Positions 12,580 through 39,053 of a DNA stretch of 64,000 nucleotides are shown one piece after another (position 1 is the stretch's first letter; each line of letters starts with the position of its first letter). Both the position numbers and the translations under genes were made by a program. The notes beneath the pieces were generated by a model that was given only the letters and a program-made list of their open reading frames with translations, was not told where the DNA came from and searched no databases. This DNA is from Liolophura sinensis (taxonomy: Eukaryota). The stretch covers positions 74,512,302 to 74,576,301 of the forward strand of contig NC_088300.1 in NCBI RefSeq assembly GCF_032854445.1. The letters are read 5' to 3'.

Positions 12580-13876
12580 ATTGTTATTTCACCAATGTCA
12601 CGTTTTTCTTTCCATCATTCTTTCTCCATCGCACTGTGCTATGTATGGTTTATTGGCCAAATAAAAAACTATTTTATCACCTGAATACAGTCCATACCTT
12701 TGCCTCATGTCTGTATTATATTGAAAAGAAACATACATGCCAATTTCTCATAAAACAGTTCTACTTCTCGTATCCGAAAATATCGTTTTATATATGGATG
12801 TTTTAACAAATTAACAACAAAACCTTACATCTTGTCACAACTCTGTCTTAAGTAGCACTGGAAAACGCCCAGAAAGACTATGTAATACAAAATCCTATCT
12901 CGAACAAGCACAGTTTGGGCCTAAACAACTGCAAATCTTATCGCACACATGTGTTGTGCCTGTTACGCTTCATACTTATCAAATTTTCACTTTTGCAAAT
13001 TTCATTTAGCCGTACTGACGAATATCTAAATCATATTGGCTGAAAAGAGTTAGCCTCTGTTTAGTTCACATTACAACAATTAACGGGTACAATTTTCAAG
13101 TACTAGTAAAACTTACATAACCGCACTTGAAATATACAAAATCTGCATCACCATTTTTGCGCACAGTGAAATGTACCTGCATGCCAAACCTCCCCAGTAA
13201 AAGCCTTAAAAATCTTCTCTCTTCAACTTAGTCTGGCTGCACTACGGCGTTGTTCCATTCAACTTGCCTAAGCATATCCGATATTCTTTTCTGTGCTGTC
13301 TTTTTGTCACAAGTCAGGCAAAGACACATTGAGAACTGGAGGTGGTACTTGTAGCATTATAAACATACTTAATTTAAGAGTCCAATTCGACCGTTTTATG
13401 TAATGTGCCAAAATACACCTTACAAAGTACATGTATTAATCTGATTTACTTCTTCATATCAAACATCAGAGACTACCATCCAGCTGCTAAATCATTCTCT
13501 GAAAATCTAGTCCAGACAAAGAGAAATTACTTACCAATTATTTTTTAGCAATGAGAAAAATTTTCTCTTCTGTGTAGGCCACCGGCCACGCAGCAGGGAT
13601 CTGACTTCGGCAAATCATCATAGAAGTAATGAAGATCCATGCTCACCGCATTTATTTGAGAAGGTCTTCATCGTATGATTACCTTTCTCACAAGCACTAA
13701 TCGTAACAAGTCGCTCACCTTCTAGGGCACAGGTCGCACAACATCAAACGGTTCTGTGAGAGTGAGTAGAAAATCTCTAGCATATATAAATCCTTTCTCA
13801 AACTTGCAGGTACCATATCCAATCTATCACACAGTCCAAGCATAGTCGACAATAATTTCCATTGATTCAACTCAGA

Positions 13877-14470
13877 ATGGATGTAGAAAGAATGGCCGCA
13901 CTGCTCAGAGAAAATTTACTTCTTCATGACGCCGCTCTCCGCAAAATTCAATTGCTCGGTATGTTCCCTTACTAAACTTGTACTTGCGTTCCATGAGTTT
14001 GTTTTAGGAGAATGCGCATGTTGTCTTAGCATTAACTGTATCTTATACCATTCTTTTATATTTTTTCAGAACAAAGACAAGAGGCTACTGAACGACGAAT
14101 AAGAGCAGCAGCATCCAACGGGCATACACCATGCCACGAACTGCTCCTTCTGCAGAAACACATTCTTGCCGATACCAAGGCCTTGTACCAGCATTACCGA
14201 CAGGAGAAATGGGATGAAGTTCAACGCGTGGCAGCCAGAGTCTTACAAACCAGCCAGGAAGACAGCGACGATGAGGACATGGGGGAGGTATTAATAAGTG
14301 TCGATGATGATAATGATGATGATGATCAATATTTTGATGAAGGTGACCACAATTCTGTTGACGACAGCCAATCTACCACTCATCCACAGGCCTTTGACAG
14401 CACCGCCATGCATAGTTTTTCCCGTTTTACACGAGATTTTTACATATCTTCGACTCGACAAGATAACTAA
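13877..14470 (+). CDS. Array gene copy 8 (exons 13877-13958, 14070-14470), intact, E variant with T39A.
   Basis: Periodic copy with conserved signals. Confidence 0.6.
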
Positions 14471-15767
14471 ATTGTTATTTCACCAATGTCACGTTTTTCT
14501 TTCCATCATTCTTTCTCCATCGCACTGTGCTATGTATGGTTTATTGGCCAAATAAAAAACTATTTTATCACCTGAATACAGTCCATACCTTTGCCTCATG
14601 TCTGTATTATATTGAAAAGAAACATACATGCCAATTTCTCATAAAACAGTTCTACTTCTCGTATCCGAAAATATCGTTTTATATATGGATGTTTTAACAA
14701 ATTAACAACAAAACCTTACATCTTGTCACAACTCTGTCTTAAGTAGCACTGGAAAACGCCCAGAAAGACTATGTAATACAAAATCCTATCTCGAACAAGC
14801 ACAGTTTGGGCCTAAACAACTGCAAATCTTATCGCACACATGTGTTGTGCCTGTTACGCTTCATACTTATCAAATTTTCACTTTTGCAAATTTCATTTAG
14901 CCGTACTGACGAATATCTAAATCATATTGGCTGAAAAGAGTTAGCCTCTGTTTAGTTCACATTACAACAATTAACGGGTACAATTTTCAAGTACTAGTAA
15001 AACTTACATAACCGCACTTGAAATATACAAAATCTACATCACCATTTTTGCGCACAGTGAAATGTACCTGCATGCCAAACCTCCCCAGTAAAAGCCTTAA
15101 AAATCTTCTCTCTTCAACTTAGTCTGGCTGCACTACGGCGTTGTTCCATTCAACTTGCCTAAGCATATCCGATATTCTTTTCTGCGCTGTCTTTTCGTCA
15201 CAAGTCAGGCAAAGACACATTGAGAACTGGAGGTGGTACTTGTAGCATTATAAACATACTTAATTTAAGAGTCCAATTCGACCGTTTTATGTAATGTGCC
15301 AAAATACACCTTACAAAGTACATGTATTAATCTGATTTACTTCTTCATATCAAACATCAGAGACTACCATCCAGCTGCTAAATCATTCTCTGAAAATCTA
15401 GTCCAGACAAAGAGAAATTACTTACCAATTATTTTTTAGCAATGAGAAAAATTTTCTCTTCTGTGTAGGCCACCGGCCACGCAGCAGGGATCTGACTTCG
15501 GCAAATCATCATAGAAGTAATGAAGATCCATGCTCACCGCATTTATTTGAGAAGGTCTTCATCGTATGATTACCTTTCTCACAAGCACTAATCGTAACAA
15601 GTCGCTCACCTTCTAGGGCACAGGTCGCACAACATCAAACGGTTCTGTGAGAGTGAGTAGAAAATCTCTAGCACATATAAATCCTTTCTCAAACTTGCAG
15701 GTACCATATCCAATCTATCACACAGTCCAAGCATAGTCGACAATAATTTCCATTGATTCAACTCAGA

Positions 15768-16361
15768 ATGGATGTAGAAAGAATGGCCGCACTGCTCAGA
15801 GAAAATTTACTTCTTCATGACGCCGCTCTCCGCAAAATTCAATTGCTCGGTATGTTCCCTTACTAAACTTGTACTTGCGTTGCATGAGTTTGTTTTAGGA
15901 GAATGCGCATGTTGTCTTAGCATTAACTGTATCTTATACCATTCTTTTATATTTTTTCAGAACAAAGACAAGAGGCTACTGAACGACGAATAAGAGCAGC
16001 AACATCCAACGGGCATACACCATGCCACGAACTGCTCCTTCTGCAGAAACACATTCTTGCCGATACCAAAGCCTTGTACCAGCATTACCGACAGGAGAAA
16101 TGGGATGAAGTTCAACGCGTGGCAGCCAGAGTCTTACAAACCAGCCAGGAAGACAGCGACGATGAGGACATGGGGGAGGTATTAATAAGTGTCGATGATG
16201 ATAATGATGATGATGATCAATATTTTGATGACGGTGACCACAATTCTGTTGACGACAGCCAATCTACCACTCATCCACAGGCCTTTGACAGCACCGCCAT
16301 GCATAGTTTTTCCCGTTTTACACGAGATTTTTACATATCTTCAACTCGACAAGATAACTAA
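15768..16361 (+). CDS. Array gene copy 9 (exons 15768-15849, 15961-16361), intact, D variant.
   Basis: Periodic copy with conserved signals. Confidence 0.6.
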
Positions 16362-17658
16362 ATTGTTATTTCACCAATGTCACGTTTTTCTTTCCATCAT
16401 TCTTTCTCCATCGCACTGTGCTATGTATGGTTTATTGGCCAAATAAAAAACTATTTTATCACCTGAATACAGTCCATACCTTTGCCTCATGTCTGTATTA
16501 TATTGAAAAGAAACATACATGCCAATTTCTCACAAAACTGTTCTGCTTCTCGTATCCGAAAATATCGTTTTATATATGGATGTTTTAACAAATTAACAAC
16601 AAAACCTTACATCTTGTCACAACTCTGTCTTAAGTAGCACTGGAAAACGCCCAGAAAGACTATGTAATACAAAATCCTATCTCGAACAAGCACAGTTTGG
16701 GCCTAAACAACTGCAAATCTTATCGCACACATGTGTTGTGCCTGTTACGCTTCATACTTATCAAATTTTCACTTTTGCAAATTTCATTTAGCCGTACTGA
16801 CGAATATCTAAATCATATTGGCTGAAAAGAGTTAGCCTCTGTTTAGTTCACATTACAACAATTAACGGGTACAATTTTCAAGTACTAGTAAAACTTACAT
16901 AACCGCACTTGAAATATACAAAATCTGCATCACCATTTTTGCGCACAGTGAAATGTACCTGCATGCCAAACCTCCCCAGTAAAAGCCTTAAAAATCTTCT
17001 CTCTTCAACTTAGTCTGGCTGCACTACGGCGTTGTTCCATTCAACTTGCCTAAGCATATCCGATATTCTTTTCTGCGCTGTCTTTTTGTCACAAGTCAGG
17101 AAAAGACACATTGAGAACTGGAGGTGGTACTTGTAGCATTATAAACATACTTCATTTAAGAGTCCAATTCGACCGTTTTATGTAATGTGCCAAAATACAC
17201 CTTACAAAGTACATGTATCAATTTGATTTACTTCTTCATATCAAACATCAAAGACTACCATCCAGCTGCTAAATCATTCTCTGAAAATCTAGTCCAGACA
17301 AAGAGAAATTACTTACCAATTATTTTTTAGCAGTGAGAAAAATTTTCTCTTCTGTGTAGGCCACCGGCCACGCAGCAGGGATCTGACTTCGGCAAATCAT
17401 CATAGAAGTAATGAACATCCATGCTCACCGCATTTATTTGAGAAGGTCTTCATCGTATGATTACCTTTCTCACAAGCACTAATCGTAACAAGTCGCTCAC
17501 CTTCTAGGGCACAGGTCGCACAACATCAAACGGTTCTGTGAGAGTGAGTAGAAAATCTCTAGCATATATAAATCCTTTTTCAAACTTGCAGGTACCATAT
17601 CCAATCTATCACACAGTCCAAGCATAGTCGACAATAATTTCCATTGATTCAACTCAGA

Positions 17659-18252
17659 ATGGATGTAGAAAGAATGGCCGCACTGCTCAGAGAAAATTTA
17701 CTTCTTCATGACGCCGCTCTCCGCAAAATTCAATTGCTCGGTATGTTCCCTTACTAAACTTGTACTTGCGTTGCATGAGTTTGTTTTAGGAGAATACGCA
17801 TGTTGTCTTAGCATTGACTGTATCTTATACCATTCTTTTATATTTTTTCAGAACAAAGACAAGAGGCTACTGAACGACGAATAAGAGCAGCAGCATCCAA
17901 CGGGCATACACCATGCCACGAACTGCTCCTTCTGCAGAAACACATTCTTGCCGATACCAAGGCCTTGTACCAGCATTACTGACAGGAGAAATGGGATGAA
18001 GTTCAACGCGTGGCAGCCAGAGTCTTACAAACCAGCCAGGAAGACAGCGACGATGAGGACATGGGGGAGGTATTAATAAGTGTCGATGATGATAATGATG
18101 ATGATGATCAATATTTTGATGAAGGTGACCACAATTCTGTTGACGACAGCCAATCTACCACTCATCCACAGGCCTTTGACAGCACCGCCATGCATAGTTT
18201 TTCCCGTTTTACACGAGATTTTTACATATCTTCAACTCGACAAGATAACTAA
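17659..18252 (+). pseudogene. Array gene copy 10. A nonsense mutation (R71 CGA to TGA at 17980-17982) truncates the protein to 70 aa.
   Basis: The sequence reads cag cat tac TGA cag gag. The ORF track shows only the 80-aa downstream fragment starting at 18010. Confidence 0.65.
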
Positions 18253-19549
18253 ATTGTTATTTCACCAATGTCACGTTTTTCTTTCCATCATTCTTTCTCC
18301 ATCGCACTGTGCTATGTATGGTTTATTGGCCAAATAAAAAACTATTTTATCACCTGAATACAGTCCATACCTTTGCCTCATGTCTGTATTATATTGAAAA
18401 GAAACATACATGCCAATTTCTCACAAAACTGTTCTGCTTCTCGTATCCGAAAATATCGTTTTATATATGGATGTTTTAACAAATTAACAACAAAACCTTA
18501 CATCTTGTCACAACTCTGTCTTAAGTAGCACTGGAAAACGCCCAGAAAGACTATGTAATACAAAATCCTATCTCGAACAAGCACAGTTTGGGCCTAAACA
18601 ACTGCAAATCTTATCGCACACATGTGTTGTGCCTGTTACGCTTCATACTTATCAAATTTTCACTTTTGCAAATTTCATTTAGCCGTACTGACGAATATCT
18701 AAATCATATTGGCTGAAAAGAGTTAGCCTCTGTTTAGTTCACATTACAACAATTAACGGGTACAATTTTCAAGTACTAGTAAAACTTACATAACCGCACT
18801 TGAAATATACAAAATCTGCATCACCATTTTTGCGCACAGTGAAATGTACCTGCATGCCAAACCTCCCCAGTAAAAGCCTTAAAAATCTTCTCTCTTCAAC
18901 TTAGTCTGGCTGCACTACGGCGTTGTTCCATTCAACTTGCCTAAGCATATCCGATATTCTTTTCTGCGCTGTCTTTTTGTCACAAGTCAGGCAAAGACAC
19001 ATTGAGAACTGGAGGTGGTACTTGTAGCATTATAAATATACTTAATTTAAGAGTCCAATTCGACCGTTTTATGTAATGTGCCAAAATACACCTTACAAAG
19101 TACATGTATTAATCTGATTTACTTCTTCATATCAAACATCAGAGACTACCATCCAGCTGCTAAATCATTCTCTGAAAATCTAGTCCAGACAAAGAGAAAT
19201 TACTTACCAATTATTTTTTAGCAATGAGAAAAATTTTCTCTTCTGTGTAGGCCACCGGCCACGCAGCAGGGATCTGACTTCGGCAAATCATCATAGAAGT
19301 AATGAAGATCCATGCTCACCGCATTTATTTGAGAAGGTCTTCATCGTATGATTACCTTTCTCACAAGCACTAATCGTAACAAGTCGCTCACCTTCTAGGG
19401 CACAGGTCGCACAACATCAAACGGTTCTGTGAGAGTGAGTAGAAAATCTCTAGCACATATAAATCCTTTCTCAAACTTGCAGGTACCATATCCAATCTAT
19501 CACACAGTCCAAGCATAGTCGACAATAATTTCCATTGATTCAACTCAGA

Positions 19550-20143
19550 ATGGATGTAGAAAGAATGGCCGCACTGCTCAGAGAAAATTTACTTCTTCAT
19601 GACGCCGCTCTCCGCAAAATTCAATTGCTCGGTATGTTCCCTTACTAAACTTGTACTTGCGTTGCATGAGTTTGTTTTAGGAGAATGCGCATGTTGTCTT
19701 AGCATTAACTGTATCTTATACCATTCTTTTATATTTTTTCAGAACAAAGACAAGAGGCTACTGAACGACGAATAAGAGCAGCAACATCCAACGGGCATAC
19801 ACCATGCCACGAACTGCTCCTTCTGCAGAAACACATTCTTGCCGATACCAAAGCCTTGTACCAGCATTACCGACAGGAGAAATGGGATGAAGTTCAACGC
19901 GTGGCAGCCAGAGTCTTACAAACCAGCCAGGAAGACAGCGACGATGAGGACATGGGGGAGGTATTAATAAGTGTCGATGATGATAATGATGATGATGATC
20001 AATATTTTGATGACGGTGACCACAATTCTGTTGACGACAGCCAATCTACCACTCATCCACAGGCCTTTGACAGCACCGCCATGCATAGTTTTTCCCGTTT
20101 TACACGAGATTTTTACATATCTTCAACTCGACAAGATAACTAA
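19550..20143 (+). CDS. Array gene copy 11 (exons 19550-19631, 19743-20143), intact, D variant.
   Basis: Periodic copy with conserved signals. Confidence 0.6.
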
Positions 20144-21440
20144 ATTGTTATTTCACCAATGTCACGTTTTTCTTTCCATCATTCTTTCTCCATCGCACTG
20201 TGCTATGTATGGTTTATTGGCCAAATAAAAAACTATTTTATCACCTGAATACAGTCCATACCTTTGCCTCATGTCTGTATTATATTGAAAAGAAACATAC
20301 ATGCCAATTTCTCACAAAACAGTTCTACTTCTCGTATCCGAAAATATCGTTTTATATATGGATGTTTTAACAAATTAACAACAAAACCTTACATCTTGTC
20401 ACAACTCTGTCTTAAGTAGCACTGGAAAACGCCCAGAAAGACTATGTAATACAAAATCCTATCTCGAACAAGCACAGTTTGGGCCTAAACAACTGCAAAT
20501 CTTATCGCACACATGTGTTGTGCCTGTTACGCTTCATACTTATCAAATTTTCACTTTTGCAAATTTCATTTAGCCGTACTGACGAATATCTAAATCATAT
20601 TGGCTGAAAAGAGTTAGCCTCTGTTTAGTTCACATTACAACAATTAACGGGTACAATTTTCAAGTACTAGTAAAACTTACATAACCGCACTTGAAATATA
20701 CAAAATATGCATCACCTTTATTGCGCACAGTGAAATGTACCTGCATGCCAAACCTCCCCAGTAAAAGCCTTAAAAATCTTCTCTCTTCAACTTAGTCTGG
20801 CTGCACTACGGCGTTGTTCCATTCAACTTGCCTAAGCATATCCGATATTCTTTTCTGCGCTGTCTTTTTGTCACAAGTCAGGCAAAGACACATTGAGAAC
20901 TGGAGGTGGTACTTGTAGCATTATAAACATACTTAATTTAAGAGTCCAATTCGACCGTTTTATGTAATGTGCCAAAATACACCTTACAAAGTACATGTAT
21001 CAATTTGATTTACTTCTTCATATCAAACATCAAAGACAACCATCCAACTGCTAAATCATTCTCTGAAAATCTAGTCCAGACAAAGAGAAATTACTTACCA
21101 ATTATTTTTTAGCAATGAGAAAAATTTTCTCTTCTGTGTAGGCCACCGGCCACGCAGCAGGGATCTGACTTCGGCAAATCATCATAGAAGTAATGAACAT
21201 CCATGCTCACCGCATTTATTTGAGAAGGTCTTCATCGTATGATTACCTTTCTCACAAGCACTAATCGTAACAAGTCGCTCACCTTCTAGGGCACAGGTCG
21301 CACAACATCAAACGGTTCTGTGAGAGTGAGTAGAAAATCTCTAGCATATATAAATCCTTTTTCAAACTTGCAGGTACCATATCCAATCTATCACACAGTC
21401 CAAGCATAGTCGACAATAATTTCCATTGATTCAACTCAGA

Positions 21441-22034
21441 ATGGATGTAGAAAGAATGGCCGCACTGCTCAGAGAAAATTTACTTCTTCATGACGCCGCT
21501 CTCCGCAAAATTCAATTGCTCGGTATGTTCCCTTACTAAACTTGTACTTGCGTTCCATGAGTTTGTTTTAGGAGAATGCGCATGTTGTCTTAGCATTAAC
21601 TGTATCTTATACCATTCTTTTATATTTTTTCAGAACAAAGACAAGAGGCTACTGAACGACGAATAAGAGCAGCAACATCCAACGGGCATACACCATGCCA
21701 CGAACTGCTCCTTCTGCAGAAACACATTCTTGCCGATACCAAAGCCTTGTACCAGCATTACCGACAGGAGAAATGGGATGAAGTTCAACGCGTGGCAGCC
21801 AGAGTCTTACAAACCAGCCAGGAAGACAGCGACGATGAGGACATGGGGGAGGTATTAATAAGTGTCGATGATGATAATGATGATGATGATCAATATTTTG
21901 ATGACGGTGACCACAATTCTGTTGACGACAGCCAATCTACCACTCATCCACAGGCCTTTGACAGCACCGCCATGCATAGTTTTTCCCGTTTTACACGAGA
22001 TTTTTACATATCTTCAACTCGACAAGATAACTAA
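21441..22034 (+). CDS. Array gene copy 12 (exons 21441-21522, 21634-22034), intact, D variant.
   Basis: Periodic copy with conserved signals. Confidence 0.6.
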
Positions 22035-23331
22035 ATTGTTATTTCACCAATGTCACGTTTTTCTTTCCATCATTCTTTCTCCATCGCACTGTGCTATGTA
22101 TGGTTTATTGGCCAAATAAAAAACTATTTTATCACCTGAATACAGTCCATACCTTTGCCTCATGTCTGTATTATAATGAAAAGAAACATACATGCCAATT
22201 TCTCACAAAACAGTTCTCCTTCTCGTATCCGAAAATATCGTTTTATATATGGATGTTTTAACAAATTAATAACAAAACCTTACATCTTGTCACAACTCTG
22301 TCTTAAGTAGCACTCAAAAAAGCCCAGAAAGACTATGTAATACAAAATCCTATCTCGAACAAGCACAGTTTGGGCCTAAACAACTGCAAATCTTATCGCA
22401 CACATGTGTTGTGCCTGTTACGCTTCATACTTATCAAATTTTCACTTTTGCAAATTTCATTTAGCCGTACTGACGAATATCTAAATCATATTGGCTGAAA
22501 AGAGTTAGCCTCTGTTTAGTTCACATTACAACAATTAACGGGTACAATTTTCAAGTACTAGTAAAACTTACATAACCGCACTTGAAATATACAAAATCTA
22601 CATCACCATTTTTGCGCACAGTGAAATGTACCTGCATGCCAAACCTCCCCAGTAAAAGCCTTAAAAATCTTCTCTCTTCAACTTAGTCTGGCTGCACTAC
22701 GGCGTTGTTCCATTCAACTTGCCTAAGCATATCCGATATTCTTTTCTGCGCTGTCTTTTCGTCACAAGTCAGGCAAAGACACATTGAGAACTGGAGGTGG
22801 TACTTGTAGCATTATAAACATACTTAATTTAAGAGTCCAATTCGACCGTTTTATGTAATGTGCCAAAATACACCTTACAAAGTACATGTATTAATCTGAT
22901 TTACTTCTTCATATCAAACATCAGAGACTACCATCCAGCTGCTAAATCATTCTCTGAAAATCTAGTCCAGACAAAGAGAAATTACTTACCAATTATTTTT
23001 TAGCAATGAGAAAAATTTTCTCTTCTGTGTAGGCCACCGGCCACGCAGCAGGGATCTGACTTCGGCAAATCATCATAGAAGTAATGAAGATCCATGCTCA
23101 CCGCATTTATTTGAGAAGGTCTTCATCGTATGATTACCTTTCTCACAAGCACTAATCGTAACAAGTCGCTCACCTTCTAGGGCACAGGTCGCACAACATC
23201 AAACGGTTCTGTGAGAGTGAGTAGAAAATCTCTAGCATATATAAATCCTTTCTCAAACTTGCAGGTACCATATCCAATCTATCACACAGTCCAAGCATAG
23301 TCGACAATAATTTCCATTGATTCAACTCAGA

Positions 23332-23925
23332 ATGGATGTAGAAAGAATGGCCGCACTGCTCAGAGAAAATTTACTTCTTCATGACGCCGCTCTCCGCAAA
23401 ATTCAATTGCTCGGTATGTTCCCTTACTAAACTTGTACTTGCGTTCCATGAGTTTGTTTTAGGAGAATGCGCATGTTGTCTTAGCATTAACTCTATCTTA
23501 TACCATTCTTATATATTTTTTCAGAACAAAGACAAGAGGCTACTGAACGACGAATAAGAGCAGCAACATCCAACGGGCATACACCATGCCACGAACTGCT
23601 CCTTCTGCAGAAACACATTCTTGCCGATACCAAAGCCTTGTACCAGCATTACCGACAGGAGAAATGGGATGAAGTTCAACGCGTGGCAGCCAGAGTCTTA
23701 CAAACCAGCCAGGAAGACAGCGACGATGAGGACATGGGGGAGGTATTAATAAGTGTCGATGATGATAATGATGATGATGATCGATATTTTGATGACGGTG
23801 ACCACAATTCTGTTGACGACAGCCAATCTACCACTCATCCACAGGCCTTTGACAGCACCGCCATGCATAGTTTTTCCCGTTTTACACGAGATTTTTACAT
23901 ATCTTCAACTCGACAAGATAACTAA
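23332..23925 (+). CDS. Array gene copy 13, intact, D variant with Q to R in the acidic tail (DDDDRYFDD).
   Basis: Periodic copy. CAA to CGA at about 23782. Confidence 0.6.
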
Positions 23926-25222
23926 ATTGTTATTTCACCAATGTCACGTTTTTCTTTCCATCATTCTTTCTCCATCGCACTGTGCTATGTATGGTTTATT
24001 GGCCAAATAAAAAACTATTTTATCACCTGAATACAGTCCATACCTTTGCCTCATGTCTGTATTATATTGAAAAGAAACATACATGCCAATTTCTCACAAA
24101 ACAGTTCTGCTTCTCGTATCCGAAAATATCGTTTTATATATGGATGTTTTAACAAATTAATAACAAAACCTTACATCTTGTCACAACTCTGTCTTAAGTA
24201 GCACTCAAAAAAGCCCAGAAAGACTATGTAATACAAAATCCTATCTCGAACAAGCACAGTTTGGGCCTAAACAACTGCAAATCTTATCGCACACATGTGT
24301 TGTGCCTGTTACGCTTCATACTTATCAAATTTTCACTTTTGCAAATTTCATTTAGCCGTACTGACGAATATCTAAATCATATTGGCTGAAAAGAGTTAGC
24401 CTCTGTTTAGTTCACATTACAACAATTAACGGGTACAATTTTCAAGTACTAGTAAAACTTACATAACCGCACTTGAAATATACAAACTCTGCATCACCAT
24501 TATTGCGCACAGTGAAATGTACCTGCATGCCAAACCTCCCCAGTAAAAGCCTTAAAAATCTTCTCTCTTCAACTTAGTCTGGCTGCACTACGGCGTTGTT
24601 CCATTCAACTTGCCTAAGCATATCCGATATTCTTTTCTGCGCTGTCTTTTTGTCACAAGTCAGGAAAAGACACATTGAGAACTGGAGGTGGTACTTGTAG
24701 CATTATAAACATACTTAATTTAAGAGTCCAATTCGACCGTTTTATGTAATGTGCCAAAATACACCTTACAAAGTACATGTATCAATTTGATTTACTTCTT
24801 CATATCAAACATCAAAGACTACCATCCAGCTGCTAAATCATTCTCTGAAAATCTAGTCCAGACAAAGAGAAATTACTTACCAATTATTTTTTAGCAGTGA
24901 GAAAAATTTTCTCTTCTGTGTAGGCCACCGGCCACGCAGCAGGGATCTGACTTCGGCAAATCATCATAGAAGTAATGAAGATCCATGCTCACCGCATTTA
25001 TTTGAGAAGGTCTTCATCGTATGATTACCTTTCTCACAAGCACTAATCGTAACAAGTCGCTCACCTTCTAGGGCACAGGTCGCACAACATCAAACGGTTC
25101 TGTGAGAGTGAGTAGAAAATCTCTAGCATATATAAATCCTTTTTCAAACTTGCAGGTACCATATCCAATCTATCACACAGTCCAAGCATAGTCGACAATA
25201 ATTTCCATTGATTCAACTCAGA

Positions 25223-25816
25223 ATGGATGTAGAAAGAATGGCCGCACTGCTCAGAGAAAATTTACTTCTTCATGACGCCGCTCTCCGCAAAATTCAATTG
25301 CTCGGTATGTTCCCTTACTAAACTTGTACTTGCGTTCCATGAGTTTGTTTTAGGAGAATGCGCATGTTGTCTTAGCATTAACTGTATCTTATACCATTCT
25401 TTTATATTTTTTCAGAACAAAGACAAGAGGCTACTGAACGACGAATAAGAGCAGCAGCATCCAACGGGCATACACCATGCCACGAACTGCTCCTTCTGCA
25501 GAAACACATTCTTGCCGATACCAAGGCCTTGTACCAGCATTACCGACAGGAGAAATGGGATGAAGTTCAACGCGTGGCAGCCAGAGTCTTACAAACCAGC
25601 CAGGAAGACAGCGACGATGAGGACATGGGGGAGGTATTAATAAGTGTCGATGATGATAATGATGATGATGATCAATATTTTGATGAAGGTGACCACAATT
25701 CTGTTGACGACAGCCAATCTACCACTCATCCACAGGCCTTTGACAGCACCGCCATGCATAGTTTTTCCCGTTTTACACGAGATTTTTACATATCTTCGAC
25801 TCGACAAGATAACTAA
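25223..25816 (+). CDS. Array gene copy 14, intact, E variant with T39A.
   Basis: Periodic copy with conserved signals. Confidence 0.6.
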
Positions 25817-27113
25817 ATTGTTATTTCACCAATGTCACGTTTTTCTTTCCATCATTCTTTCTCCATCGCACTGTGCTATGTATGGTTTATTGGCCAAATA
25901 AAAAACTATTTTATCACCTGAATACAGTCCATACCTTTGCCTCATGTCTGTATTATATTGAAAAGAAACATACATGCCAATTTCTCACAAAACTGTTCTG
26001 CTTCTCGTATCCGAAAATATCGTTTTATATATGGATGTTTTAACAAATTAACAACAAAACCTTACATCTTGTCACAACTCTGTCTTAAGTAGCACTGGAA
26101 AACGCCCAGAAAGACTATGTAATACAAAATCCTATCTCGAACAAGCACAGTTTGGGCCTAAACAACTGCAAATCTTATCGCACACATGTGTTGTGCCTGT
26201 TACGCTTCATACTTATCAAATTTTCACTTTTGCAAATTTCATTTAGCCGTACTGACGAATATCTAAATCATATTGGCTGAAAAGAGTTAGCCTCTGTTTA
26301 GTTCACATTACAACAATTAACGGGTACAATTTTCAAGTACTAGTAAAACTTACATAACCGCACTTGAAATATACAAAATCTGCATCACCATTTTTGCGCA
26401 CAGTGAAATGTACCTGCATGCCAAACCTCCCCAGTAAAAGCCTTAAAAATCTTCTCTCTTCAACTTAGTCTGGCTGCACTACGGCGTTGTTCCATTCAAC
26501 TTGCCTAAGCATATCCGATATTCTTTTCTGCGCTGTCTTTTTGTCACAAGTCAGGAAAAGACACATTGAGAACTGGAGGTGGTACTTGTAGCATTATAAA
26601 CATACTTCATTTAAGAGTCCAATTCGACCGTTTTATGTAATGTGCCAAAATACACCTTACAAAGTACATGTATCAATTTGATTTACTTCTTCATATCAAA
26701 CATCAAAGACTACCATCCAGCTGCTAAATCATTCTCTGAAAATCTAGTCCAGACAAAGAGAAATTACTTACCAATTATTTTTTAGCAGTGAGAAAAATTT
26801 TCTCTTCTGTGTAGGCCACCGGCCACGCAGCAGGGATCTGACTTCGGCAAATCATCATAGAAGTAATGAACATCCATGCTCACCGCATTTATTTGAGAAG
26901 GTCTTCATCGTATGATTACCTTTCTCACAAGCACTAATCGTAACAAGTCGCTCACCTTCTAGGGCACAGGTCGCACAACATCAAACGGTTCTGTGAGAGT
27001 GAGTAGAAAATCTCTAGCATATATAAATCCTTTTTCAAACTTGCAGGTACCATATCCAATCTATCACACAGTCCAAGCATAGTCGACAATAATTTCCATT
27101 GATTCAACTCAGA

Positions 27114-27707
27114 ATGGATGTAGAAAGAATGGCCGCACTGCTCAGAGAAAATTTACTTCTTCATGACGCCGCTCTCCGCAAAATTCAATTGCTCGGTATG
27201 TTCCCTTACTAAACTTGTACTTGCGTTGCATGAGTTTGTTTTAGGAGAATACGCATGTTGTCTTAGCATTGACTGTATCTTATACCATTCTTTTATATTT
27301 TTTCAGAACAAAGACAAGAGGCTACTGAACGACGAATAAGAGCAGCAGCATCCAACGGGCATACACCATGCCACGAACTGCTCCTTCTGCAGAAACACAT
27401 TCTTGCCGATACCAAGGCCTTGTACCAGCATTACTGACAGGAGAAATGGGATGAAGTTCAACGCGTGGCAGCCAGAGTCTTACAAACCAGCCAGGAAGAC
27501 AGCGACGATGAGGACATGGGGGAGGTATTAATAAGTGTCGATGATGATAATGATGATGATGATCAATATTTTGATGAAGGTGACCACAATTCTGTTGACG
27601 ACAGCCAATCTACCACTCATCCACAGGCCTTTGACAGCACCGCCATGCATAGTTTTTCCCGTTTTACACGAGATTTTTACATATCTTCAACTCGACAAGA
27701 TAACTAA
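27114..27707 (+). pseudogene. Array gene copy 15. It carries the same R71 nonsense (TGA at 27435-27437) as copies 10 and 18.
   Basis: The sequence reads cattacTGAcagg. The ORF track shows the 80-aa fragment from 27465. Its diagnostic intron and spacer variants (gagaatacgcatg, cattgactg, gaacatccatg) match copy 10. Confidence 0.65.
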
Positions 27708-29004
27708 ATTGTTATTTCACCAATGTCACGTTTTTCTTTCCATCATTCTTTCTCCATCGCACTGTGCTATGTATGGTTTATTGGCCAAATAAAAAACTAT
27801 TTTATCACCTGAATACAGTCCATACCTTTGCCTCATGTCTGTATTATATTGAAAAGAAACATACATGCCAATTTCTCACAAAACTGTTCTGCTTCTCGTA
27901 TCCGAAAATATCGTTTTATATATGGATGTTTTAACAAATTAACAACAAAACCTTACATCTTGTCACAACTCTGTCTTAAGTAGCACTGGAAAACGCCCAG
28001 AAAGACTATGTAATACAAAATCCTATCTCGAACAAGCACAGTTTGGGCCTAAACAACTGCAAATCTTATCGCACACATGTGTTGTGCCTGTTACGCTTCA
28101 TACTTATCAAATTTTCACTTTTGCAAATTTCATTTAGCCGTACTGACGAATATCTAAATCATATTGGCTGAAAAGAGTTAGCCTCTGTTTAGTTCACATT
28201 ACAACAATTAACGGGTACAATTTTCAAGTACTAGTAAAACTTACATAACCGCACTTGAAATATACAAAATCTGCATCACCATTTTTGCGCACAGTGAAAT
28301 GTACCTGCATGCCAAACCTCCCCAGTAAAAGCCTTAAAAATCTTCTCTCTTCAACTTAGTCTGGCTGCACTACGGCGTTGTTCCATTCAACTTGCCTAAG
28401 CATATCCGATATTCTTTTCTGCGCTGTCTTTTTGTCACAAGTCAGGCAAAGACACATTGAGAACTGGAGGTGGTACTTGTAGCATTATAAACATACTTAA
28501 TTTAAGAGTCCAATTCGACCGTTTTATGTAATGTGCCAAAATACACCTTACAAAGTACATGTATTAATCTGATTTACTTCTTCATATCAAACATCAGAGA
28601 CTACCATCCAGCTGCTAAATCATTCTCTGAAAATCTAGTCCAGACAAAGAGAAATTACTTACCAATTATTTTTTAGCAATGAGAAAAATTTTCTCTTCTG
28701 TGTAGGCCACCGGCCACGCAGCAGGGATCTGACTTCGGCAAATCATCATAGAAGTAATGAAGATCCATGCTCACCGCATTTATTTGAGAAGGTCTTCATC
28801 GTATGATTACCTTTCTCACAAGCACTAATCGTAACAAGTCGCTCACCTTCTAGGGCACAGGTCGCACAACATCAAACGGTTCTGTGAGAGTGAGTAGAAA
28901 ATCTCTAGCACATATAAATCCTTTCTCAAACTTGCAGGTACCATATCCAATCTATCACACAGTCCAAGCATAGTCGACAATAATTTCCATTGATTCAACT
29001 CAGA

Positions 29005-29598
29005 ATGGATGTAGAAAGAATGGCCGCACTGCTCAGAGAAAATTTACTTCTTCATGACGCCGCTCTCCGCAAAATTCAATTGCTCGGTATGTTCCCTTAC
29101 TAAACTTGTACTTGCGTTGCATGAGTTTGTTTTAGGAGAATGCGCATGTTGTCTTAGCATTAACTGTATCTTATACCATTCTTTTATATTTTTTCAGAAC
29201 AAAGACAAGAGGCTACTGAACGACGAATAAGAGCAGCAACATCCAACGGGCATACACCATGCCACGAACTGCTCCTTCTGCAGAAACACATTCTTGCCGA
29301 TACCAAAGCCTTGTACCAGCATTACCGACAGGAGAAATGGGATGAAGTTCAACGCGTGGCAGCCAGAGTCTTACAAACCAGCCAGGAAGACAGCGACGAT
29401 GAGGACATGGGGGAGGTATTAATAAGTGTCGATGATGATAATGATGATGATGATCAATATTTTGATGACGGTGACCACAATTCTGTTGACGACAGCCAAT
29501 CTACCACTCATCCACAGGCCTTTGACAGCACCGCCATGCATAGTTTTTCCCGTTTTACACGAGATTTTTACATATCTTCAACTCGACAAGATAACTAA
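29005..29598 (+). CDS. Array gene copy 16, intact, D variant.
   Basis: Periodic copy with conserved signals. Confidence 0.6.
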
Positions 29599-30895
29599 AT
29601 TGTTATTTCACCAATGTCACGTTTTTCTTTCCATCATTCTTTCTCCATCGCACTGTGCTATGTATGGTTTATTGGCCAAATAAAAAACTATTTTATCACC
29701 TGAATACAGTCCATACCTTTGCCTCATGTCTGTATTATATTGAAAAGAAACATACATGCCAATTTCTCACAAAACAGTTCTACTTCTCGTATCCGAAAAT
29801 ATCGTTTTATATATGGATGTTTTAACAAATTAACAACAAAACCTTACATCTTGTCACAACTCTGTCTTAAGTAGCACTGGAAAACGCCCAGAAAGACTAT
29901 GTAATACAAAATCCTATCTCGAACAAGCACAGTTTGGGCCTAAACAACTGCAAATCTTATCGCACACATGTGTTGTGCCTGTTACGCTTCATACTTATCA
30001 AATTTTCACTTTTGCAAATTTCATTTAGCCGTACTGACGAATATCTAAATCATATTGGCTGAAAAGAGTTAGCCTCTGTTTAGTTCACATTACAACAATT
30101 AACGGGTACAATTTTCAAGTACTAGTAAAACTTACATAACCGCACTTGAAATATACAAAATATGCATCACCTTTATTGCGCACAGTGAAATGTACCTGCA
30201 TGCCAAACCTCCCCAGTAAAAGCCTTAAAAATCTTCTCTCTTCAACTTAGTCTGGCTGCACTACGGCGTTGTTCCATTCAACTTGCCTAAGCATATCCGA
30301 TATTCTTTTCTGCGCTGTCTTTTTGTCACAAGTCAGGCAAAGACACATTGAGAACTGGAGGTGGTACTTGTAGCATTATAAACATACTTAATTTAAGAGT
30401 CCAATTCGACCGTTTTATGTAATGTGCCAAAATACACCTTACAAAGTACATGTATCAATTTGATTTACTTCTTCATATCAAACATCAAAGACAACCATCC
30501 AACTGCTAAATCATTCTCTGAAAATCTAGTCCAGACAAAGAGAAATTACTTACCAATTATTTTTTAGCAATGAGAAAAATTTTCTCTTCTGTGTAGGCCA
30601 CCGGCCACGCAGCAGGGATCTGACTTCGGCAAATCATCATAGAAGTAATGAACATCCATGCTCACCGCATTTATTTGAGAAGGTCTTCATCGTATGATTA
30701 CCTTTCTCACAAGCACTAATCGTAACAAGTCGCTCACCTTCTAGGGCACAGGTCGCACAACATCAAACGGTTCTGTGAGAGTGAGTAGAAAATCTCTAGC
30801 ATATATAAATCCTTTTTCAAACTTGCAGGTACCATATCCAATCTATCACACAGTCCAAGCATAGTCGACAATAATTTCCATTGATTCAACTCAGA

Positions 30896-31489
30896 ATGGA
30901 TGTAGAAAGAATGGCCGCACTGCTCAGAGAAAATTTACTTCTTCATGACGCCGCTCTCCGCAAAATTCAATTGCTCGGTATGTTCCCTTACTAAACTTGT
31001 ACTTGCGTTCCATGAGTTTGTTTTAGGAGAATGCGCATGTTGTCTTAGCATTAACTGTATCTTATACCATTCTTTTATATTTTTTCAGAACAAAGACAAG
31101 AGGCTACTGAACGACGAATAAGAGCAGCAACATCCAACGGGCATACACCATGCCACGAACTGCTCCTTCTGCAGAAACACATTCTTGCCGATACCAAAGC
31201 CTTGTACCAGCATTACCGACAGGAGAAATGGGATGAAGTTCAACGCGTGGCAGCCAGAGTCTTACAAACCAGCCAGGAAGACAGCGACGATGAGGACATG
31301 GGGGAGGTATTAATAAGTGTCGATGATGATAATGATGATGATGATCAATATTTTGATGACGGTGACCACAATTCTGTTGACGACAGCCAATCTACCACTC
31401 ATCCACAGGCCTTTGACAGCACCGCCATGCATAGTTTTTCCCGTTTTACACGAGATTTTTACATATCTTCAACTCGACAAGATAACTAA
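30896..31489 (+). CDS. Array gene copy 17, intact, D variant.
   Basis: Periodic copy with conserved signals. Confidence 0.6.
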
Positions 31490-32786
31490 ATTGTTATTTC
31501 ACCAATGTCACGTTTTTCTTTCCATCATTCTTTCTCCATCGCACTGTGCTATGTATGGTTTATTGGCCAAATAAAAAACTATTTTATCACCTGAATACAG
31601 TCCATACCTTTGCCTCATGTCTGTATTATATTGAAAAGAAACATACATGCCAATTTCTCACAAAACAGTTCTCCTTCTCGTATCCGAAAATATCGTTTTA
31701 TATATGGATGTTTTAACAAATTAATAACAAAACCTTACATCTTGTCACAACTCTGTCTTAAGTAGCACTCAAAAAAGCCCAGAAAGACTATGTAATACAA
31801 AATCCTATCTCGAACAAGCACAGTTTGGGCCTAAACAACTGCAAATCTTATCGCACACATGTGTTGTGCCTGTTACGCTTCATACTTATCAAATTTTCAC
31901 TTTTGCAAATTTCATTTAGCCGTACTGACGAATATCTAAATCATATTGGCTGAAAAGAGTTAGCCTCTGTTTAGTTCACATTACAACAATTAACGGGTAC
32001 AATTTTCAAGTACTAGTAAAACTTACATAACCGCACTTGAAATATACAAAATCTGCATCACCATTTTTGCGCACAGTGAAATGTACCTGCATGCCAAACC
32101 TCCCCAGTAAAAGCCTTAAAAATCTTCTCTCTTCAACTTAGTCTGGCTGCACTACGGCGTTGTTCCATTCAACTTGCCTAAGCATATCCGATATTCTTTT
32201 CTGCGCTGTCTTTTTGTCACAAGTCAGGAAAAGACACATTGAGAACTGGAGGTGGTACTTGTAGCATTATAAACATACTTAATTTAAGAGTCCAATTCGA
32301 CCGTTTTATGTAATGTGCCAAAATACACCTTACAAAGTACATGTATCAATTTGATTTACTTCTTCATATCAAACATCAAAGACTACCATCCAGCTGCTAA
32401 ATCATTCTCTGAAAATCTAGTCCAGACAAAGAGAAATTACTTACCAATTATTTTTTAGCAGTGAGAAAAATTTTCTCTTCTGTGTAGGCCACCGGCCACG
32501 CAGCAGGGATCTGACTTCGGCAAATCATCATAGAAGTAATGAACATCCATGCTCACCGCATTTATTTGAGAAGGTCTTCATCGTATGATTACCTTTCTCA
32601 CAAGCACTAATCGTAACAAGTCGCTCACCTTCTAGGGCACAGGTCGCACAACATCAAACGGTTCTGTGAGAGTGAGTAGAAAATCTCTAGCATATATAAA
32701 TCCTTTTTCAAACTTGCAGGTACCATATCCAATCTATCACACAGTCCAAGCATAGTCGACAATAATTTCCATTGATTCAACTCAGA

Positions 32787-33380
32787 ATGGATGTAGAAAG
32801 AATGGCCGCACTGCTCAGAGAAAATTTACTTCTTCATGACGCCGCTCTCCGCAAAATTCAATTGCTCGGTATGTTCCCTTACTAAACTTGTACTTGCGTT
32901 GCATGAGTTTGTTTTAGGAGAATGCGCATGTTGTCTTAGCATTGACTGTATCTTATACCATTCTTTTATATTTTTTCAGAACAAAGACAAGAGGCTACTG
33001 AACGACGAATAAGAGCAGCAGCATCCAACGGGCATACACCATGCCACGAACTGCTCCTTCTGCAGAAACACATTCTTGCCGATACCAAGGCCTTGTACCA
33101 GCATTACTGACAGGAGAAATGGGATGAAGTTCAACGCGTGGCAGCCAGAGTCTTACAAACCAGCCAGGAAGACAGCGACGATGAGGACATGGGGGAGGTA
33201 TTAATAAGTGTCGATGATGATAATGATGATGATGATCAATATTTTGATGAAGGTGACCACAATTCTGTTGACGACAGCCAATCTACCACTCATCCACAGG
33301 CCTTTGACAGCACCGCCATGCATAGTTTTTCCCGTTTTACACGAGATTTTTACATATCTTCAACTCGACAAGATAACTAA
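32787..33380 (+). pseudogene. Array gene copy 18. Same R71 nonsense (TGA at 33108-33110).
   Basis: The sequence reads gcattacTGAcagg. The ORF track shows the 80-aa fragment from 33138. Confidence 0.65.
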
Positions 33381-34677
33381 ATTGTTATTTCACCAATGTC
33401 ACGTTTTTCTTTCCATCATTCTTTCTCCATCGCACTGTGCTATGTATGGTTTATTGGCCAAATAAAAAACTATTTTATCACCTGAATACAGTCCATACCT
33501 TTGCCTCATGTCTGTATTATATTGAAAAGAAACATACATGCCAATTTCTCACAAAACTGTTCTGCTTCTCGTATCCGAAAATATCGTTTTATATATGGAT
33601 GTTTTAACAAATTAACAACAAAACCTTACATCTTGTCACAACTCTGTCTTAAGTAGCACTGGAAAACGCCCAGAAAGACTATGTAATACAAAATCCTATC
33701 TCGAACAAGCACAGTTTGGGCCTAAACAACTGCAAATCTTATCGCACACATGTGTTGTGCCTGTTACGCTTCATACTTATCAAATTTTCACTTTTGCAAA
33801 TTTCATTTAGCCGTACTGACGAATATCTAAATCATATTGGCTGAAAAGAGTTAGCCTCTGTTTAGTTCACATTACAACAATTAACGGGTACAATTTTCAA
33901 GTACTATTAAAACTTACATAACCGCACTTGAAATATACAAAATCTGCATCACCATTTTTGCGCACAGTGAAATGTACCTGCATGCCAAACCTCCCCAGTA
34001 AAAGCCTTAAAAATCTTCTCTCTTCAACTTAGTCTGGCTGCACTACGGCGTTGTTCCATTCAACTTGCCTAAGCATATCCGATATTCTTTTCTGCGCTGT
34101 CTTTTTGTCACAAGTCAGGCAAAGACACATTGAGAACTGGAGGTGGTACTTGTAGCATTATAAACATACTTAATTTAAGAGTCCAATTCGACCGTTTTAT
34201 GTAATGTGCCAAAATACACCTTACAAAGTACATGTATTAATCTGATTTACTTCTTCATATCAAACATCAGAGACTACCATCCAGCTGCTAAATCATTCTC
34301 TGAAAATCTAGTCCAGACAAAGAGAAATTACTTACCAATTATTTTTTAGCAATGAGAAAAATTTTCTCTTCTGTGTAGGCCACCGGCCACGCAGCAGGGA
34401 TCTGACTTCGGCAAATCATCATAGAAGTAATGAAGATCCATGCTCACCGCATTTATTTGAGAAGGTCTTCATCGTATGATTACCTTTCTCACAAGCACTA
34501 ATCGTAACAAGTCGCTCACCTTCTAGGGCACAGGTCGCACAACATCAAACGGTTCTGTGAGAGTGAGTAGAAAATCTCTAGCATATATAAATCCTTTCTC
34601 AAACTTGCAGGTACCATATCCAATCTATCACACAGTCCAAGCATAGTCGACAATAATTTCCATTGATTCAACTCAGA

Positions 34678-35271
34678 ATGGATGTAGAAAGAATGGCCGC
34701 ACTGCTCAGAGAAAATTTACTTCTTCATGACGCCGCTCTCCGCAAAATTCAATTGCTCGGTATGTTCCCTTACTAAACTTGTACTTGCGTTGCATGAGTT
34801 TGTTTTAGGAGAATGCGCATGTTGTCTTAGCATTAACTGTATCTTATACCATTCTTTTATATTTTTTCAGAACAAAGACAAGAGGCTACTGAACGACGAA
34901 TAAGAGCAGCAACATCCAACGGGCATACACCATGCCACGAACTGCTCCTTCTGCAGAAACACATTCTTGCCGATACCAAAGCCTTGTACCAGCATTACCG
35001 ACAGGAGAAATGGGATGAAGTTCAACGCGTGGCAGCCAGAGTCTTACAAACCAGCCAGGAAGACAGCGACGATGAGGACATGGGGGAGGTATTAATAAGT
35101 GTCGATGATGATAATGATGATGATGATCAATATTTTGATGACGGTGACCACAATTCTGTTGACGACAGCCAATCTACTACTCATCCACAGGCCTTTGACA
35201 GCACCGCCATGCATAGTTTTTCCCGTTTTACACGAGATTTTTACATATCTTCAACTCGACAAGATAACTAA
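34678..35271 (+). CDS. Array gene copy 19, intact, D variant.
   Basis: Periodic copy with conserved signals. Confidence 0.6.
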
Positions 35272-36568
35272 ATTGTTATTTCACCAATGTCACGTTTTTC
35301 TTTCCATCATTCTTTCTCCATCGCACTGTGCTATGTATGGTTTATTGGCCAAATAAAAAACTATTTTATCACCTGAATACAGTCCATACCTTTGCCTCAT
35401 GTCTGTATTATATTGAAAAGAAACATACATGCCAATTTCTCACAAAACAGTTCTCCTTCTCGTATCCGAAAATATCGTTTTATATATGGATGTTTTAACA
35501 AATTAACAACAAAACCTTACATCTTGTCACAACTCTGTCTTAAGTAGCACTGGAAAACGCCCAGAAAGACTATGTAATACAAAATCCTATCTCGAACAAG
35601 CACAGTTTGGGCCTAAACAACTGCAAATCTTATCGCACACATGTGTTGTGCCTGTTACGCTTCATACTTATCAAATTTTCACTTTTGCAAATTTCATTTA
35701 GCCGTACTGACGAATATCTAAATCATATTGGCTGAAAAGAGTTAGCCTCTGTTTAGTTCACATTACAACAATTAACGGGTACAATTTTCAAGTACTAGTA
35801 AAACTTACATAACCGCACTTGAAATATACAAAATATGCATCACCTTTATTGCGCACAGTGAAATGTACCTGCATGCCAAACCTCCCCAGTAAAAGCCTTA
35901 AAAATCTTCTCTCTTCAACTTAGTCTGGCTGCACTACGGCGTTGTTCCATTCAACTTGCCTAAGCATATCCGATATTCTTTTCTGCGCTGTCTTTTTGTC
36001 ACAAGTCAGGCAAAGACACATTGAGAACTGGAGGTGGTACTTGTAGCATTATAAACATACTTAATTTAAGAGTCCAATTCGACCGTTTTATGTAATGTGC
36101 CAAAATACACCTTACAAAGTACATGTATTAATCTGATTTACTTCTTCATATCAAACATCAGAGACTACCATCCAGCTGCTAAATCATTCTCTGAAAATCT
36201 AGTCCAGACAAAGAGAAATTACTTACCAATTATTTTTTAGCAATGAGAAAAATTTTCTCTTCTGTGTAGGCCACCGGCCACGCAGCAGGGATCTGACTTC
36301 GGCAAATCATCATAGAAGTAATGAAGATCCATGCTCACCGCATTTATTTGAGAAGGTCTTCATCGTATGATTACCTTTCTCACAAGCACTAATCGTAACA
36401 AGTCGCTCACCTTCTAGGGCACAGGTCGCACAACATCAAACGGTTCTGTGAGAGTGAGTAGAAAATCTCTAGCATATATAAATCCTTTCTCAAACTTGCA
36501 GGTACCATATCCAATCTATCACACAGTCCAAGCATAGTCGACAATAATTTCCATTGATTCAACTCAGA

Positions 36569-37162
36569 ATGGATGTAGAAAGAATGGCCGCACTGCTCAG
36601 AGAAAATTTACTTCTTCATGACGCCGCTCTCCGCAAAATTCAATTGCTCGGTATGTTCCCTTACTAAACTTGTACTTGCGTTCCATGAGTTTGTTTTAGG
36701 AGAATGCGCATGTTGTCTTAGCATTAACTGTATCTTATACCATTCTTTTATATTTTTCCACAACAAAGACAAGAGGCTACTGAACGACGAATAAGAGCAG
36801 CAACATCCAACGGGCATACACCATGCCACGAACTGCTCCTTCTGCAGAAACACATTCTTGCCGATACCAAGGCCTTGTACCAGCATTACCGACAGGAGAA
36901 ATGGGATGAAGTTCAACGCGTGGCAGCCAGAGTCTTACAAACCAGCCAGGAAAACAGCGACGATGAGGACATGGGGGAGGTATTAATAAGTGTCGATGAT
37001 GATAATGATGATGATGATCAATATTTTGATGAAGGTGACCACAATTCTGTTGACGACAGCCAATCTACTACTCATCCACAGGCCTTTGACAGCACCGCCA
37101 TGCATAGTTTTTCCCGTTTTACACGAGATTTTTACATATCTTCAACTCGACAAGATAACTAA
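36569..37162 (+). pseudogene. Array gene copy 20. The intron acceptor is destroyed (AG to AC at 36760-36761; ttttttcagAAC becomes tttttccacAAC). It also has a D to N substitution.
   Basis: Aligning it to unit 1 at 824-835 shows the AG is lost. No in-frame AG lies nearby. Exon 2 is otherwise open, so the ORF track still lists it. Confidence 0.5.
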
Positions 37163-38459: not shown

Positions 38460-39053
38460 ATGGATGTAGAAAGAATGGCCGCACTGCTCAGAGAAAATTT
38501 ACTTCTTCATGACGCCGCTCTCCGCAAAATTCAATTGCTCGGTATGTTCCCTTACTAAACTTGTACTTGCGTTCCATGAGTTTGTTTTAGGAGAATGCGC
38601 ATGTTGTCTTAGCATTAACTGTATCTTATACCATTCTTTTATATTTTTTCAGAACAAAGACAAGAGGCTACTGAACGACGAATAAGAGCAGCAACATCCA
38701 ACGGGCATACACCATGCCACGAACTGCTCCTTCTGCAGAAACACATTCTTGCCGATACCAAGGCCTTGTACCAGCATTACCGACAGGAGAAATGGGACGA
38801 AGTTCAACGCGTGGCAGCCAGAGTCTTACAAACCAGCCAGGAAGACAGCGACGATGAGGACATGGGGGAGGTATTAATAAGTGTCGATGATGATAATGAT
38901 GATGATGATCAATATTTTGATGACGGTGACCACAATTCTGTTGACGACAGCCAATCTACCACTCATCCACAGGCCTTTGACAGCACCGCCATGCATAGTT
39001 TTTCCCGTTTTACACGAGATTTTTACATATCTTCAACTCGACAAGATAACTAA
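38460..39053 (+). CDS. Array gene copy 21, intact, D variant.
   Basis: Periodic copy. Silent GAT to GAC at about 38796. Confidence 0.6.

Follow-up and report, generated by a model that had tools for sequence, protein, structure and literature searches.

Multi-unit copying of a premature stop codon within a tandem protein-coding gene array of Liolophura sinensis

Organization of the array

The window analyzed here, a stretch of 64,000 nucleotides from Liolophura sinensis (NCBI RefSeq assembly GCF_032854445.1, contig NC_088300.1, positions 74,512,302 to 74,576,301 of the forward strand), is occupied from its first position to position 48646 by a head-to-tail tandem array on the plus strand, in which every full unit carries a compact spliced gene. 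Three of the gene copies, numbers 10, 15 and 18, are interrupted by the same TGA at codon 71. This stop arose once and is identical by descent in the three copies, having been copied along with neighbouring units.

The unit length of 1891 bp is the dominant spacing of k-mers; these distances were used instead of Tandem Repeats Finder, which was run with a period limit of 500 that left the array out of range and reported only an (AT)50 tract. An anchor 20-mer recurs at positions 1, 1892 and so on to 45386, 47277 and 47703, and the start of unit n is given by 1+1891(n-1) through unit 22. The array comprises 25 full units (units 1 to 25), an internally deleted rump of 426 bp and a terminal unit that is cut off, with at least 26 gene copies altogether; it continues past the left edge of the window, and only its right edge lies within. 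Unit length is nearly constant, as all 25 units measure 1891 or 1892 bp and the sole indel is 1 bp (unit 22 having 1892 bp). Across all 300 unit pairs, both the mean and the median are 16 differences per 1891 bp, and unit identity within the array amounts to 99.2% with the spacers included. GC skew is strongly and uniformly negative (about -0.16) over positions 1-47276 and positive in the unique flank, the negative value being due to the composition of the repeated unit, whose coding strand is richer in C than in G. No RNA gene was found in the repeat unit by Rfam at gathering scores or at E<=1, and ARAGORN found no tRNA.

Divergence is highest at the right edge, where unit 25 is the most divergent of the full units (18-33 differences) and the terminal units are rearranged and 95-98% identical to it. 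Such a diverged and rearranged edge is the classical signature of interior homogenization, since exchange homogenizes the interior of an array and leaves the edge units, here at 97-98%, most diverged. The junction with unique DNA is formed by a perfect palindrome, TGGCAAGGGAATATGG-(AT)50-CCATATTCCCTTGCCA, which cuts the last gene copy (copy 26) at about codon 63. Fragility or recombinogenic behaviour is a known property of long AT palindromes, and the (AT)50 palindrome may be a trace of the process that created the array edge. The coordinates of all features are collected in Table 1.

Table 1. Features of the window (positions are those of the 64,000-nucleotide stretch)
Feature	Position	Strand	Remarks
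Tandem array	1..48646	+	25 full units, rump 47277-47702, terminal unit 47703-48646
Rump unit	47277-47702		426 bp, internally deleted, without gene; made of unit positions 1-166, 1321-1484 and 1789-1891
Terminal unit	47703-48646		Ends at unit position 944
Palindrome	48642..48775	.	About 134 bp, perfect; right end of array, junction with unique DNA
Gene copy 10	17659..18252	+	Exon 1 17659-17740, GT..AG intron 17741-17851, exon 2 17852-18252
Premature TGA of copy 10	17980-17982	+	Codon 71
Gene copy 15	27114..27707	+	TGA 27435-27437; unit identical to unit 10 across 1891 bp
Gene copy 18	32787..33380	+	TGA 33108-33110; unit differs at 3 sites from units 10 and 15
Destroyed splice acceptor of copy 20	36759..36761	+	CAG>CAC, plus T>C at 36758
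Independent CGA>TGA of copy 7	12565..12567	+	Codon 157; last 4 residues lost
Younger block, copy a	16344..22759	+	Tail of unit 9, units 10, 11 and 12, first 67 bp of unit 13; matches 25799-32214
Younger block, copy b	25799..32214	+	Tail of unit 14, units 15, 16 and 17, first 67 bp of unit 18
Older block, copy a	26104..30455	+	Unit 14 position 1521 to unit 17 position 199; matches 31777-36128
Older block, copy b	31777..36128	+	Unit 17 position 1521 to unit 20 position 199, units 18 and 19 included
Independent two-unit duplication	6778..15031	+	6778-11249 matches 10560-15031, 2 mismatches in 4472 bp, offset 3782 bp
tRNA-like stretch	49200-49560	-	Rfam tRNA score of 29.2 bits (49485-49556), slightly exceeding the gathering score; no tRNA there by ARAGORN
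Transposon debris	49671-52300	both	Downstream of array
GIY-YIG-like open reading frame	49671-49934	+	Resembles Penelope-type endonuclease
Retroelement pol or integrase-like open reading frames	51208-52298	-	Within the transposon debris
Exons of PUF60 (poly(U)-binding splicing factor) homologue	60354-63470	+	About 11.7 kb downstream of array

The gene carried by each unit

Every full unit contains a two-exon gene of 160 codons, with a TATA box, an ATG, a GT-AG intron, a stop codon and an AATAAA signal in the expected places. In copy 10, the TATA box (TATATAAA, 17565-17572) is located 94 nt upstream of the ATG, a first exon of 82 nt runs to a GTATGT donor, the 111-nt intron ends with TTTTTTCAG, and the TAA at 18250-18252 is followed 81 nt later by AATAAA (18333-18338). 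Variable sites across the array are found at 12 of the 483 exonic nucleotides (2.5%) versus 9 of the 111 intronic ones (8.1%, P = 0.008). Half of the exonic variants are synonymous (6 against 6 non-synonymous), and the ratio of non-synonymous to synonymous polymorphism (pN/pS) is 0.26 (binomial P = 0.023).

A first word-indexed protein search with the array gene gave no match. An exhaustive HMMER search uncovered homologues that share 41-61% identity with the array protein and lie on short marine-metagenome and sequencing-run contigs (E-values between 2.5e-28 and 1.8e-17, with 4e-20 and 5e-19 among them), and a profile search added genes annotated by NCBI as 'uncharacterized protein' in Mytilus galloprovincialis and M. 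edulis. Two homologous loci (L001 and L005) bear a GT-AG intron at the identical place and in the same phase 1, after codon 27 plus one base, and DNA similarity between species is restricted to the two exons (66-84%), as the spacers do not align. Judged from sequence, the reading frame is a real gene under coding constraint, because it has homologues with a shared intron position, annotated Mytilus relatives, exon-only conservation, a low pN/pS, a more variable intron and the TATA and AATAAA signals.

The protein family is unnamed and uncharacterized, which is the mildly novel part of the finding. No Pfam family scored above its gathering threshold (the best, DUF7529, reached 17.4 bits against a cut-off of 27), a PDB profile search with the array protein returned 0 matches at E<=1, and the PDB folds retrieved by Foldseek, none of them at E<=0.001, were generic helical hairpins (iSH2, ESCRT-III/Vipp1 and ING4). 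AlphaFold2, run with alignment A2, predicted with confidence a hairpin of two helices (residues 3-44 and 47-95; predicted local distance difference test score above 90 for residues 1-90), followed by a predicted disordered acidic tail. R71 is nearly invariant in the family and is the first residue of its most conserved motif, R-Q-x-K-W-[DN]-E-V-Q.

Nonsense and other defective copies

Spliced translation of the 26 copies revealed TGA at codon 71 in copies 10, 15 and 18 only, with CGA in all others. The identical CGA to TGA change that a previous sequence-only reading had ascribed to these three copies was thereby confirmed, and its copy numbers and coordinates proved exact, with the ATG of copy 10 starting at 17659 and the stop codon of copy 18 ending at 33380. 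In the predicted hairpin, the stop would interrupt helix 2 and remove half of this helix together with the entire tail. As R71 is nearly invariant and this predicted loss is large, the null label appears reasonable for the three copies.

Other defects are of independent origin or kind, including the destroyed splice acceptor of copy 20 and the truncation of copy 26. In copy 7, CGA has changed to TGA at another codon (157), independently of codon 71, and all of the closer homologues in alignment A3 retain R157. The sequence-only reading had counted at least 5 of 26 copies as non-functional (10, 15, 18, 20 and 26); all five are indeed defective, but unit 7 had been left out. For annotation, the practical value is that 5-6 of the 26 gene copies are to be flagged as defective.

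Descent of the codon-71 stop

Units 10 and 15 show 0 differences per 1891 bp and units 10 and 18 show 3, while the flanking units are similarly close, with 1 difference between units 11 and 16, 2 between units 12 and 17, and 3 between units 16 and 19. A phylogeny of the units had been put forward earlier as the means to tell duplication from recurrent mutation, which would leave the three nonsense units scattered. In the neighbour-joining tree of the 25 full units, calculated with the TGA column removed, units 10, 15 and 18 formed one clade with 98% bootstrap support, and within it units 10 and 15 grouped at 99%. Units 11 and 16 were joined at 99%, units 12 and 17 at 100%, and units 11, 16 and 19 at 86%. 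The stop is identical by descent, because the 98% clade was recovered without the stop site itself. In addition, the three units share the linked intron variant 797G, and the closest intact relative of the null units is unit 14, at 6-7 differences.

Exact searches showed that the sequence markers thought to unite these units are only partly specific. Among the intron and spacer variants attributed to copies 10, 15 and 18, 'cattgactg' is present in all three, but 'gagaatacgcatg' is found only in units 10 and 15 and is absent from unit 18, 'cttcatttaag' is found in units 10 and 15 plus twice in the terminal units and is likewise absent from unit 18, and 'gaacatccatg' is non-specific, occurring in 8 units. 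For the flanking pairs, copies 11-12 and 16-17, all the proposed markers are present and the few differences given above agree with the pairing; 'gacaaccatccaactgc' is restricted to units 12 and 17, but 'acaaaatatgcatcacctttattgcg' is found in units 11, 16 and 19, and 'ttaataacaaaacc' and 'gcactcaaaaaagccc' are found in units 12, 13, 17 and 20.

Copied blocks and their geometry

Two pairs of matching blocks carry the stop, and their displacements of 9455 bp and 5673 bp correspond to the offsets of 5 and 3 units at which the three copies had been noted to lie. The block termed younger here, at the 5-unit offset, is mismatched at three positions (19037, 22176 and 22600) over 6416 bp and spans about 3.4 units; by diagnostic sites, the copied tract measures between 5.2 and 6.4 kb, and exactly three units are allowed. 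The block termed older has 6 mismatches in 4352 bp and spans about 2.3 units, with a tract between 3.4 and 4.35 kb by the same kind of sites. On either side of the younger block, mismatches occur at about one per 100-150 bp. A third block, the independent two-unit duplication in units 4-8, fits a single simple unequal exchange.

When the order of the units was shuffled, at least 3 consecutive units matching at one offset with <=2 differences were obtained in 64 of 200,000 shuffles. Array-wide, the rate of mismatches stays level at 0.69-0.99% whichever offset between 1 and 20 units is taken, a background against which the three local blocks alone are conspicuous. The blocks are thus local segmental copies and do not belong to a regular higher-order repeat. 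Accordingly, the duplication of blocks of 3-5 units and about 9.5 kb, as first described, holds as multi-unit copying, but the blocks measure 6.4 and 4.35 kb, and 9.5 kb is the displacement; there is no array-wide periodicity of n units.

Proposed history and alternative explanations

The preferred explanation is that a stop of single origin was copied at least twice, along with its neighbours, by out-of-register homologous recombination, to which a probability of about 0.85 is assigned. A single C to T transition at the codon-71 CpG (CGA to TGA), with the linked 797G, would have arisen once on an 'A-type' unit. An older event would have copied an A+B tract of 3.4-4.35 kb and raised the null copies from 1 to 2; it would lie behind the similarity of units 10-11 (now also 15-16) to units 18-19, at about 0.15% divergence. 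A younger event, at about 0.05% divergence, would have copied an A+B+C tract of 5.2-6.4 kb, so that units 15-17 derive from units 10-12 or vice versa, with a net gain of 3 units and a rise of the null copies from 2 to 3. Either unequal crossing-over, involving sisters or homologues, or misaligned break repair or gene conversion may have been at work. An extra null would affect dosage little where about 20 copies are intact, and null copies would be expected to drift and not to be removed. The earlier statement that the array spreads a null allele rather than purging it is a fair description, but it marks no anomaly, as this is what would be expected of a weakly selected null among at least 20 intact copies.

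Several points weigh against this history. In each of the two blocks with the TGA, the displacement exceeds the length, contrary to the prediction for one simple unequal crossover between sister chromatids. Which event is older is judged from 3 versus 6 mismatches, which are statistically not distinct, the reconstruction is based on one assembled haplotype in which a local duplication by the assembly may occur, and the use of the intact copies is read from their sequence. A single simple sister-chromatid unequal crossover, which predicts a block length equal to the displacement, was rejected for both the 5-unit and the 3-unit event. Because the blocks are shorter than the displacement, an extra step is needed, in the form of a deletion, structurally different homologues or repair synthesis, and three routes fit: a crossover between structurally differing homologues, a duplication followed by a two-unit deletion, or one misaligned event of repair synthesis or gene conversion. 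The last of these, a non-reciprocal and out-of-register process such as synthesis-dependent strand annealing or break-induced replication in place of reciprocal crossing-over, concerns the mechanism only. It would explain with one event a block of 6.4 kb displaced by 9.5 kb, or one of 4.35 kb displaced by 5.7 kb, and a tract of exactly three units is compatible with the diagnostic sites, but the other two routes fit equally well and the two-unit block at 6778-15031 agrees with simple unequal exchange; this mechanism is rated at somewhat below even odds.

The remaining alternatives are far less probable. Recurrent mutation, in which codon 71 changed from CGA to TGA three times independently at a hypermutable CpG, has in its favour that the change is a CpG transition, that the second CGA in unit 7 independently became TGA, and that the CpG observed/expected ratio (array 0.77, flank 0.62) suggests some methylation. 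CpG transitions, however, number 5 among 79 variants, which is no excess for the 5.7% of sites concerned, all three units share 797G and have matching neighbours, and the bootstrap clade recovered without the stop site effectively refutes recurrence, leaving it a negligible chance. An assembly artefact, by which the same 5-6 kb stretch of a near-uniform array was placed twice and the extra nulls are unreal, draws on the identity of units 10 and 15, on the mere 3 mismatches in 6.4 kb of the younger block, and on the difficulty of assembling 1.9-kb units at 99.2% identity. Nevertheless, the block copies lie in different flanks (units 13-14 versus units 18-20), and they differ by three substitutions and not by homopolymer indels. 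Structure of this kind is also seen in the older block, which is more diverged, and in the independent two-unit block, and an unrelated long-read assembly contains a related array that is periodic over several units as well, which makes an artefact improbable. If the reading frame had arisen by chance in non-coding satellite DNA, the term null allele would be meaningless; the lack of a Pfam family at threshold and the empty word-indexed search are in line with this reading. The homologues, two of which have the same intron position and phase, the annotated Mytilus genes, the exon-only conservation between species, the pN/pS and the confident predicted fold argue in the opposite direction and make it very unlikely.

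Flanking DNA downstream of the array

The unique flank contains transposon debris on both strands. The tRNA-like stretch next to it is probably a tRNA-derived short interspersed nuclear element inserted in a transposon remnant. Farther downstream, the PUF60 homologue has its best named match in the sea slug Elysia marginata (78%).

Related arrays and homologues elsewhere

Two of the homologues are themselves arranged in tandem. Homologue P0002 is present on circularly permuted contigs (loci L002, L003 and L004), one of them with a 127-bp terminal overlap and one Tara Oceans sample included, and this circular permutation together with the overlap indicates a tandem unit of 1687 bp. Homologue P0016 occurs as 14 tandem copies of about 1.6 kb with the same intron position on a long-read contig of 22311 bp (ENA ERZ25069786 ctg47258; loci L007 and L008). 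Self-identity of the latter array reaches 99.2% at an offset of 3 units (4791 bp) and 99.5% at 9 units (14543 bp) versus 98.3-98.5% for adjacent units, demonstrating that it has multi-unit structure as well. A metagenome locus scan yielded no confirmed locus.

The distant homologue of M. galloprovincialis, LOC143045536 (132 aa; locus L009, 10001-10399), is a single intronless open reading frame located on the opposite strand within a large Sec7-domain (ARF-GEF-like) gene and is not arrayed. The arrayed state is therefore recurrent and not universal, since the Mytilus homologue is single-copy. A tentative and rather unlikely extension would be that an undescribed family is kept as high-copy arrays with units of 1.6-1.9 kb in several marine invertebrate lineages, its proteins consisting of a predicted helical hairpin of about 95 residues and a predicted disordered acidic tail with an L-I-S-V-D-D motif. 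If so, the array organization itself would be maintained, whether because of dosage, as in histone genes, or through germline conflict, as in ampliconic sex-linked genes, and the null copies and multi-unit turnover would be by-products. The uncharacterized array-borne family may merit an expression study.

Comparison with known systems

The array has the properties expected of a tandem protein-coding array under concerted evolution, as its units are constant in length, its gene appears constrained, likeness within the array exceeds that between species, and its edge is less homogenized; assignment to non-coding satellite DNA does not suit it, since a conserved protein family exists. The nonsense codon serves as a natural tag by which two nested copying events could be tentatively ordered at base-pair resolution.

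The closest precedent is the 27-unit tRNA triplet array on chromosome 1 of Arabidopsis, for which multi-unit duplication was inferred from a unit phylogeny laid on physical order and was attributed to unequal crossing-over (Kane, Freeling & Lyons 2010, PMC2886086). Both arrays consist of head-to-tail gene units whose intercalated clades point to duplication of sets of at least two units, and both exhibit concerted evolution within the species with little constraint on copy number. The present array differs in that the unit holds a spliced protein-coding gene, that a nonsense mutation is the marker, and that two of the three blocks are displaced and not adjacent.

Human TSPY is an ampliconic protein-coding array with embedded pseudogenes, for which unequal crossing-over has been invoked and copy number is polymorphic (doi 10.1101/2022.12.01.518724). 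It resembles the L. sinensis array in having one gene per unit, dozens of near-identical copies, and pseudogene copies in and beside the array, while its unit of 20 kb is in contrast to the 1.9-kb unit here, which is free of transposable elements. In centromeric alpha satellite, where monomers diverge by 20-40%, adjacent monomers resemble each other less than multi-monomer blocks do. The same relation holds for the blocks described here, which, however, follow no regular n-mer period, consist of units that are genes, and belong to an array with a divergence of 0.8%.

In the theory of molecular drive and concerted evolution, Smith in 1976, Dover in 1982 and Ohta are said to have held that a variant, even a defective one, can spread in an array by unequal exchange or conversion, whatever its consequence for fitness, if its effect per copy is small. 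The array of L. sinensis is an instance of this theory and does not differ from it in principle. The understanding of such arrays is unchanged by it; the movement of variants regardless of their effect is illustrated, and the finding is a clean new example of a known phenomenon, the textbook out-of-register recombination of a tandem gene array.

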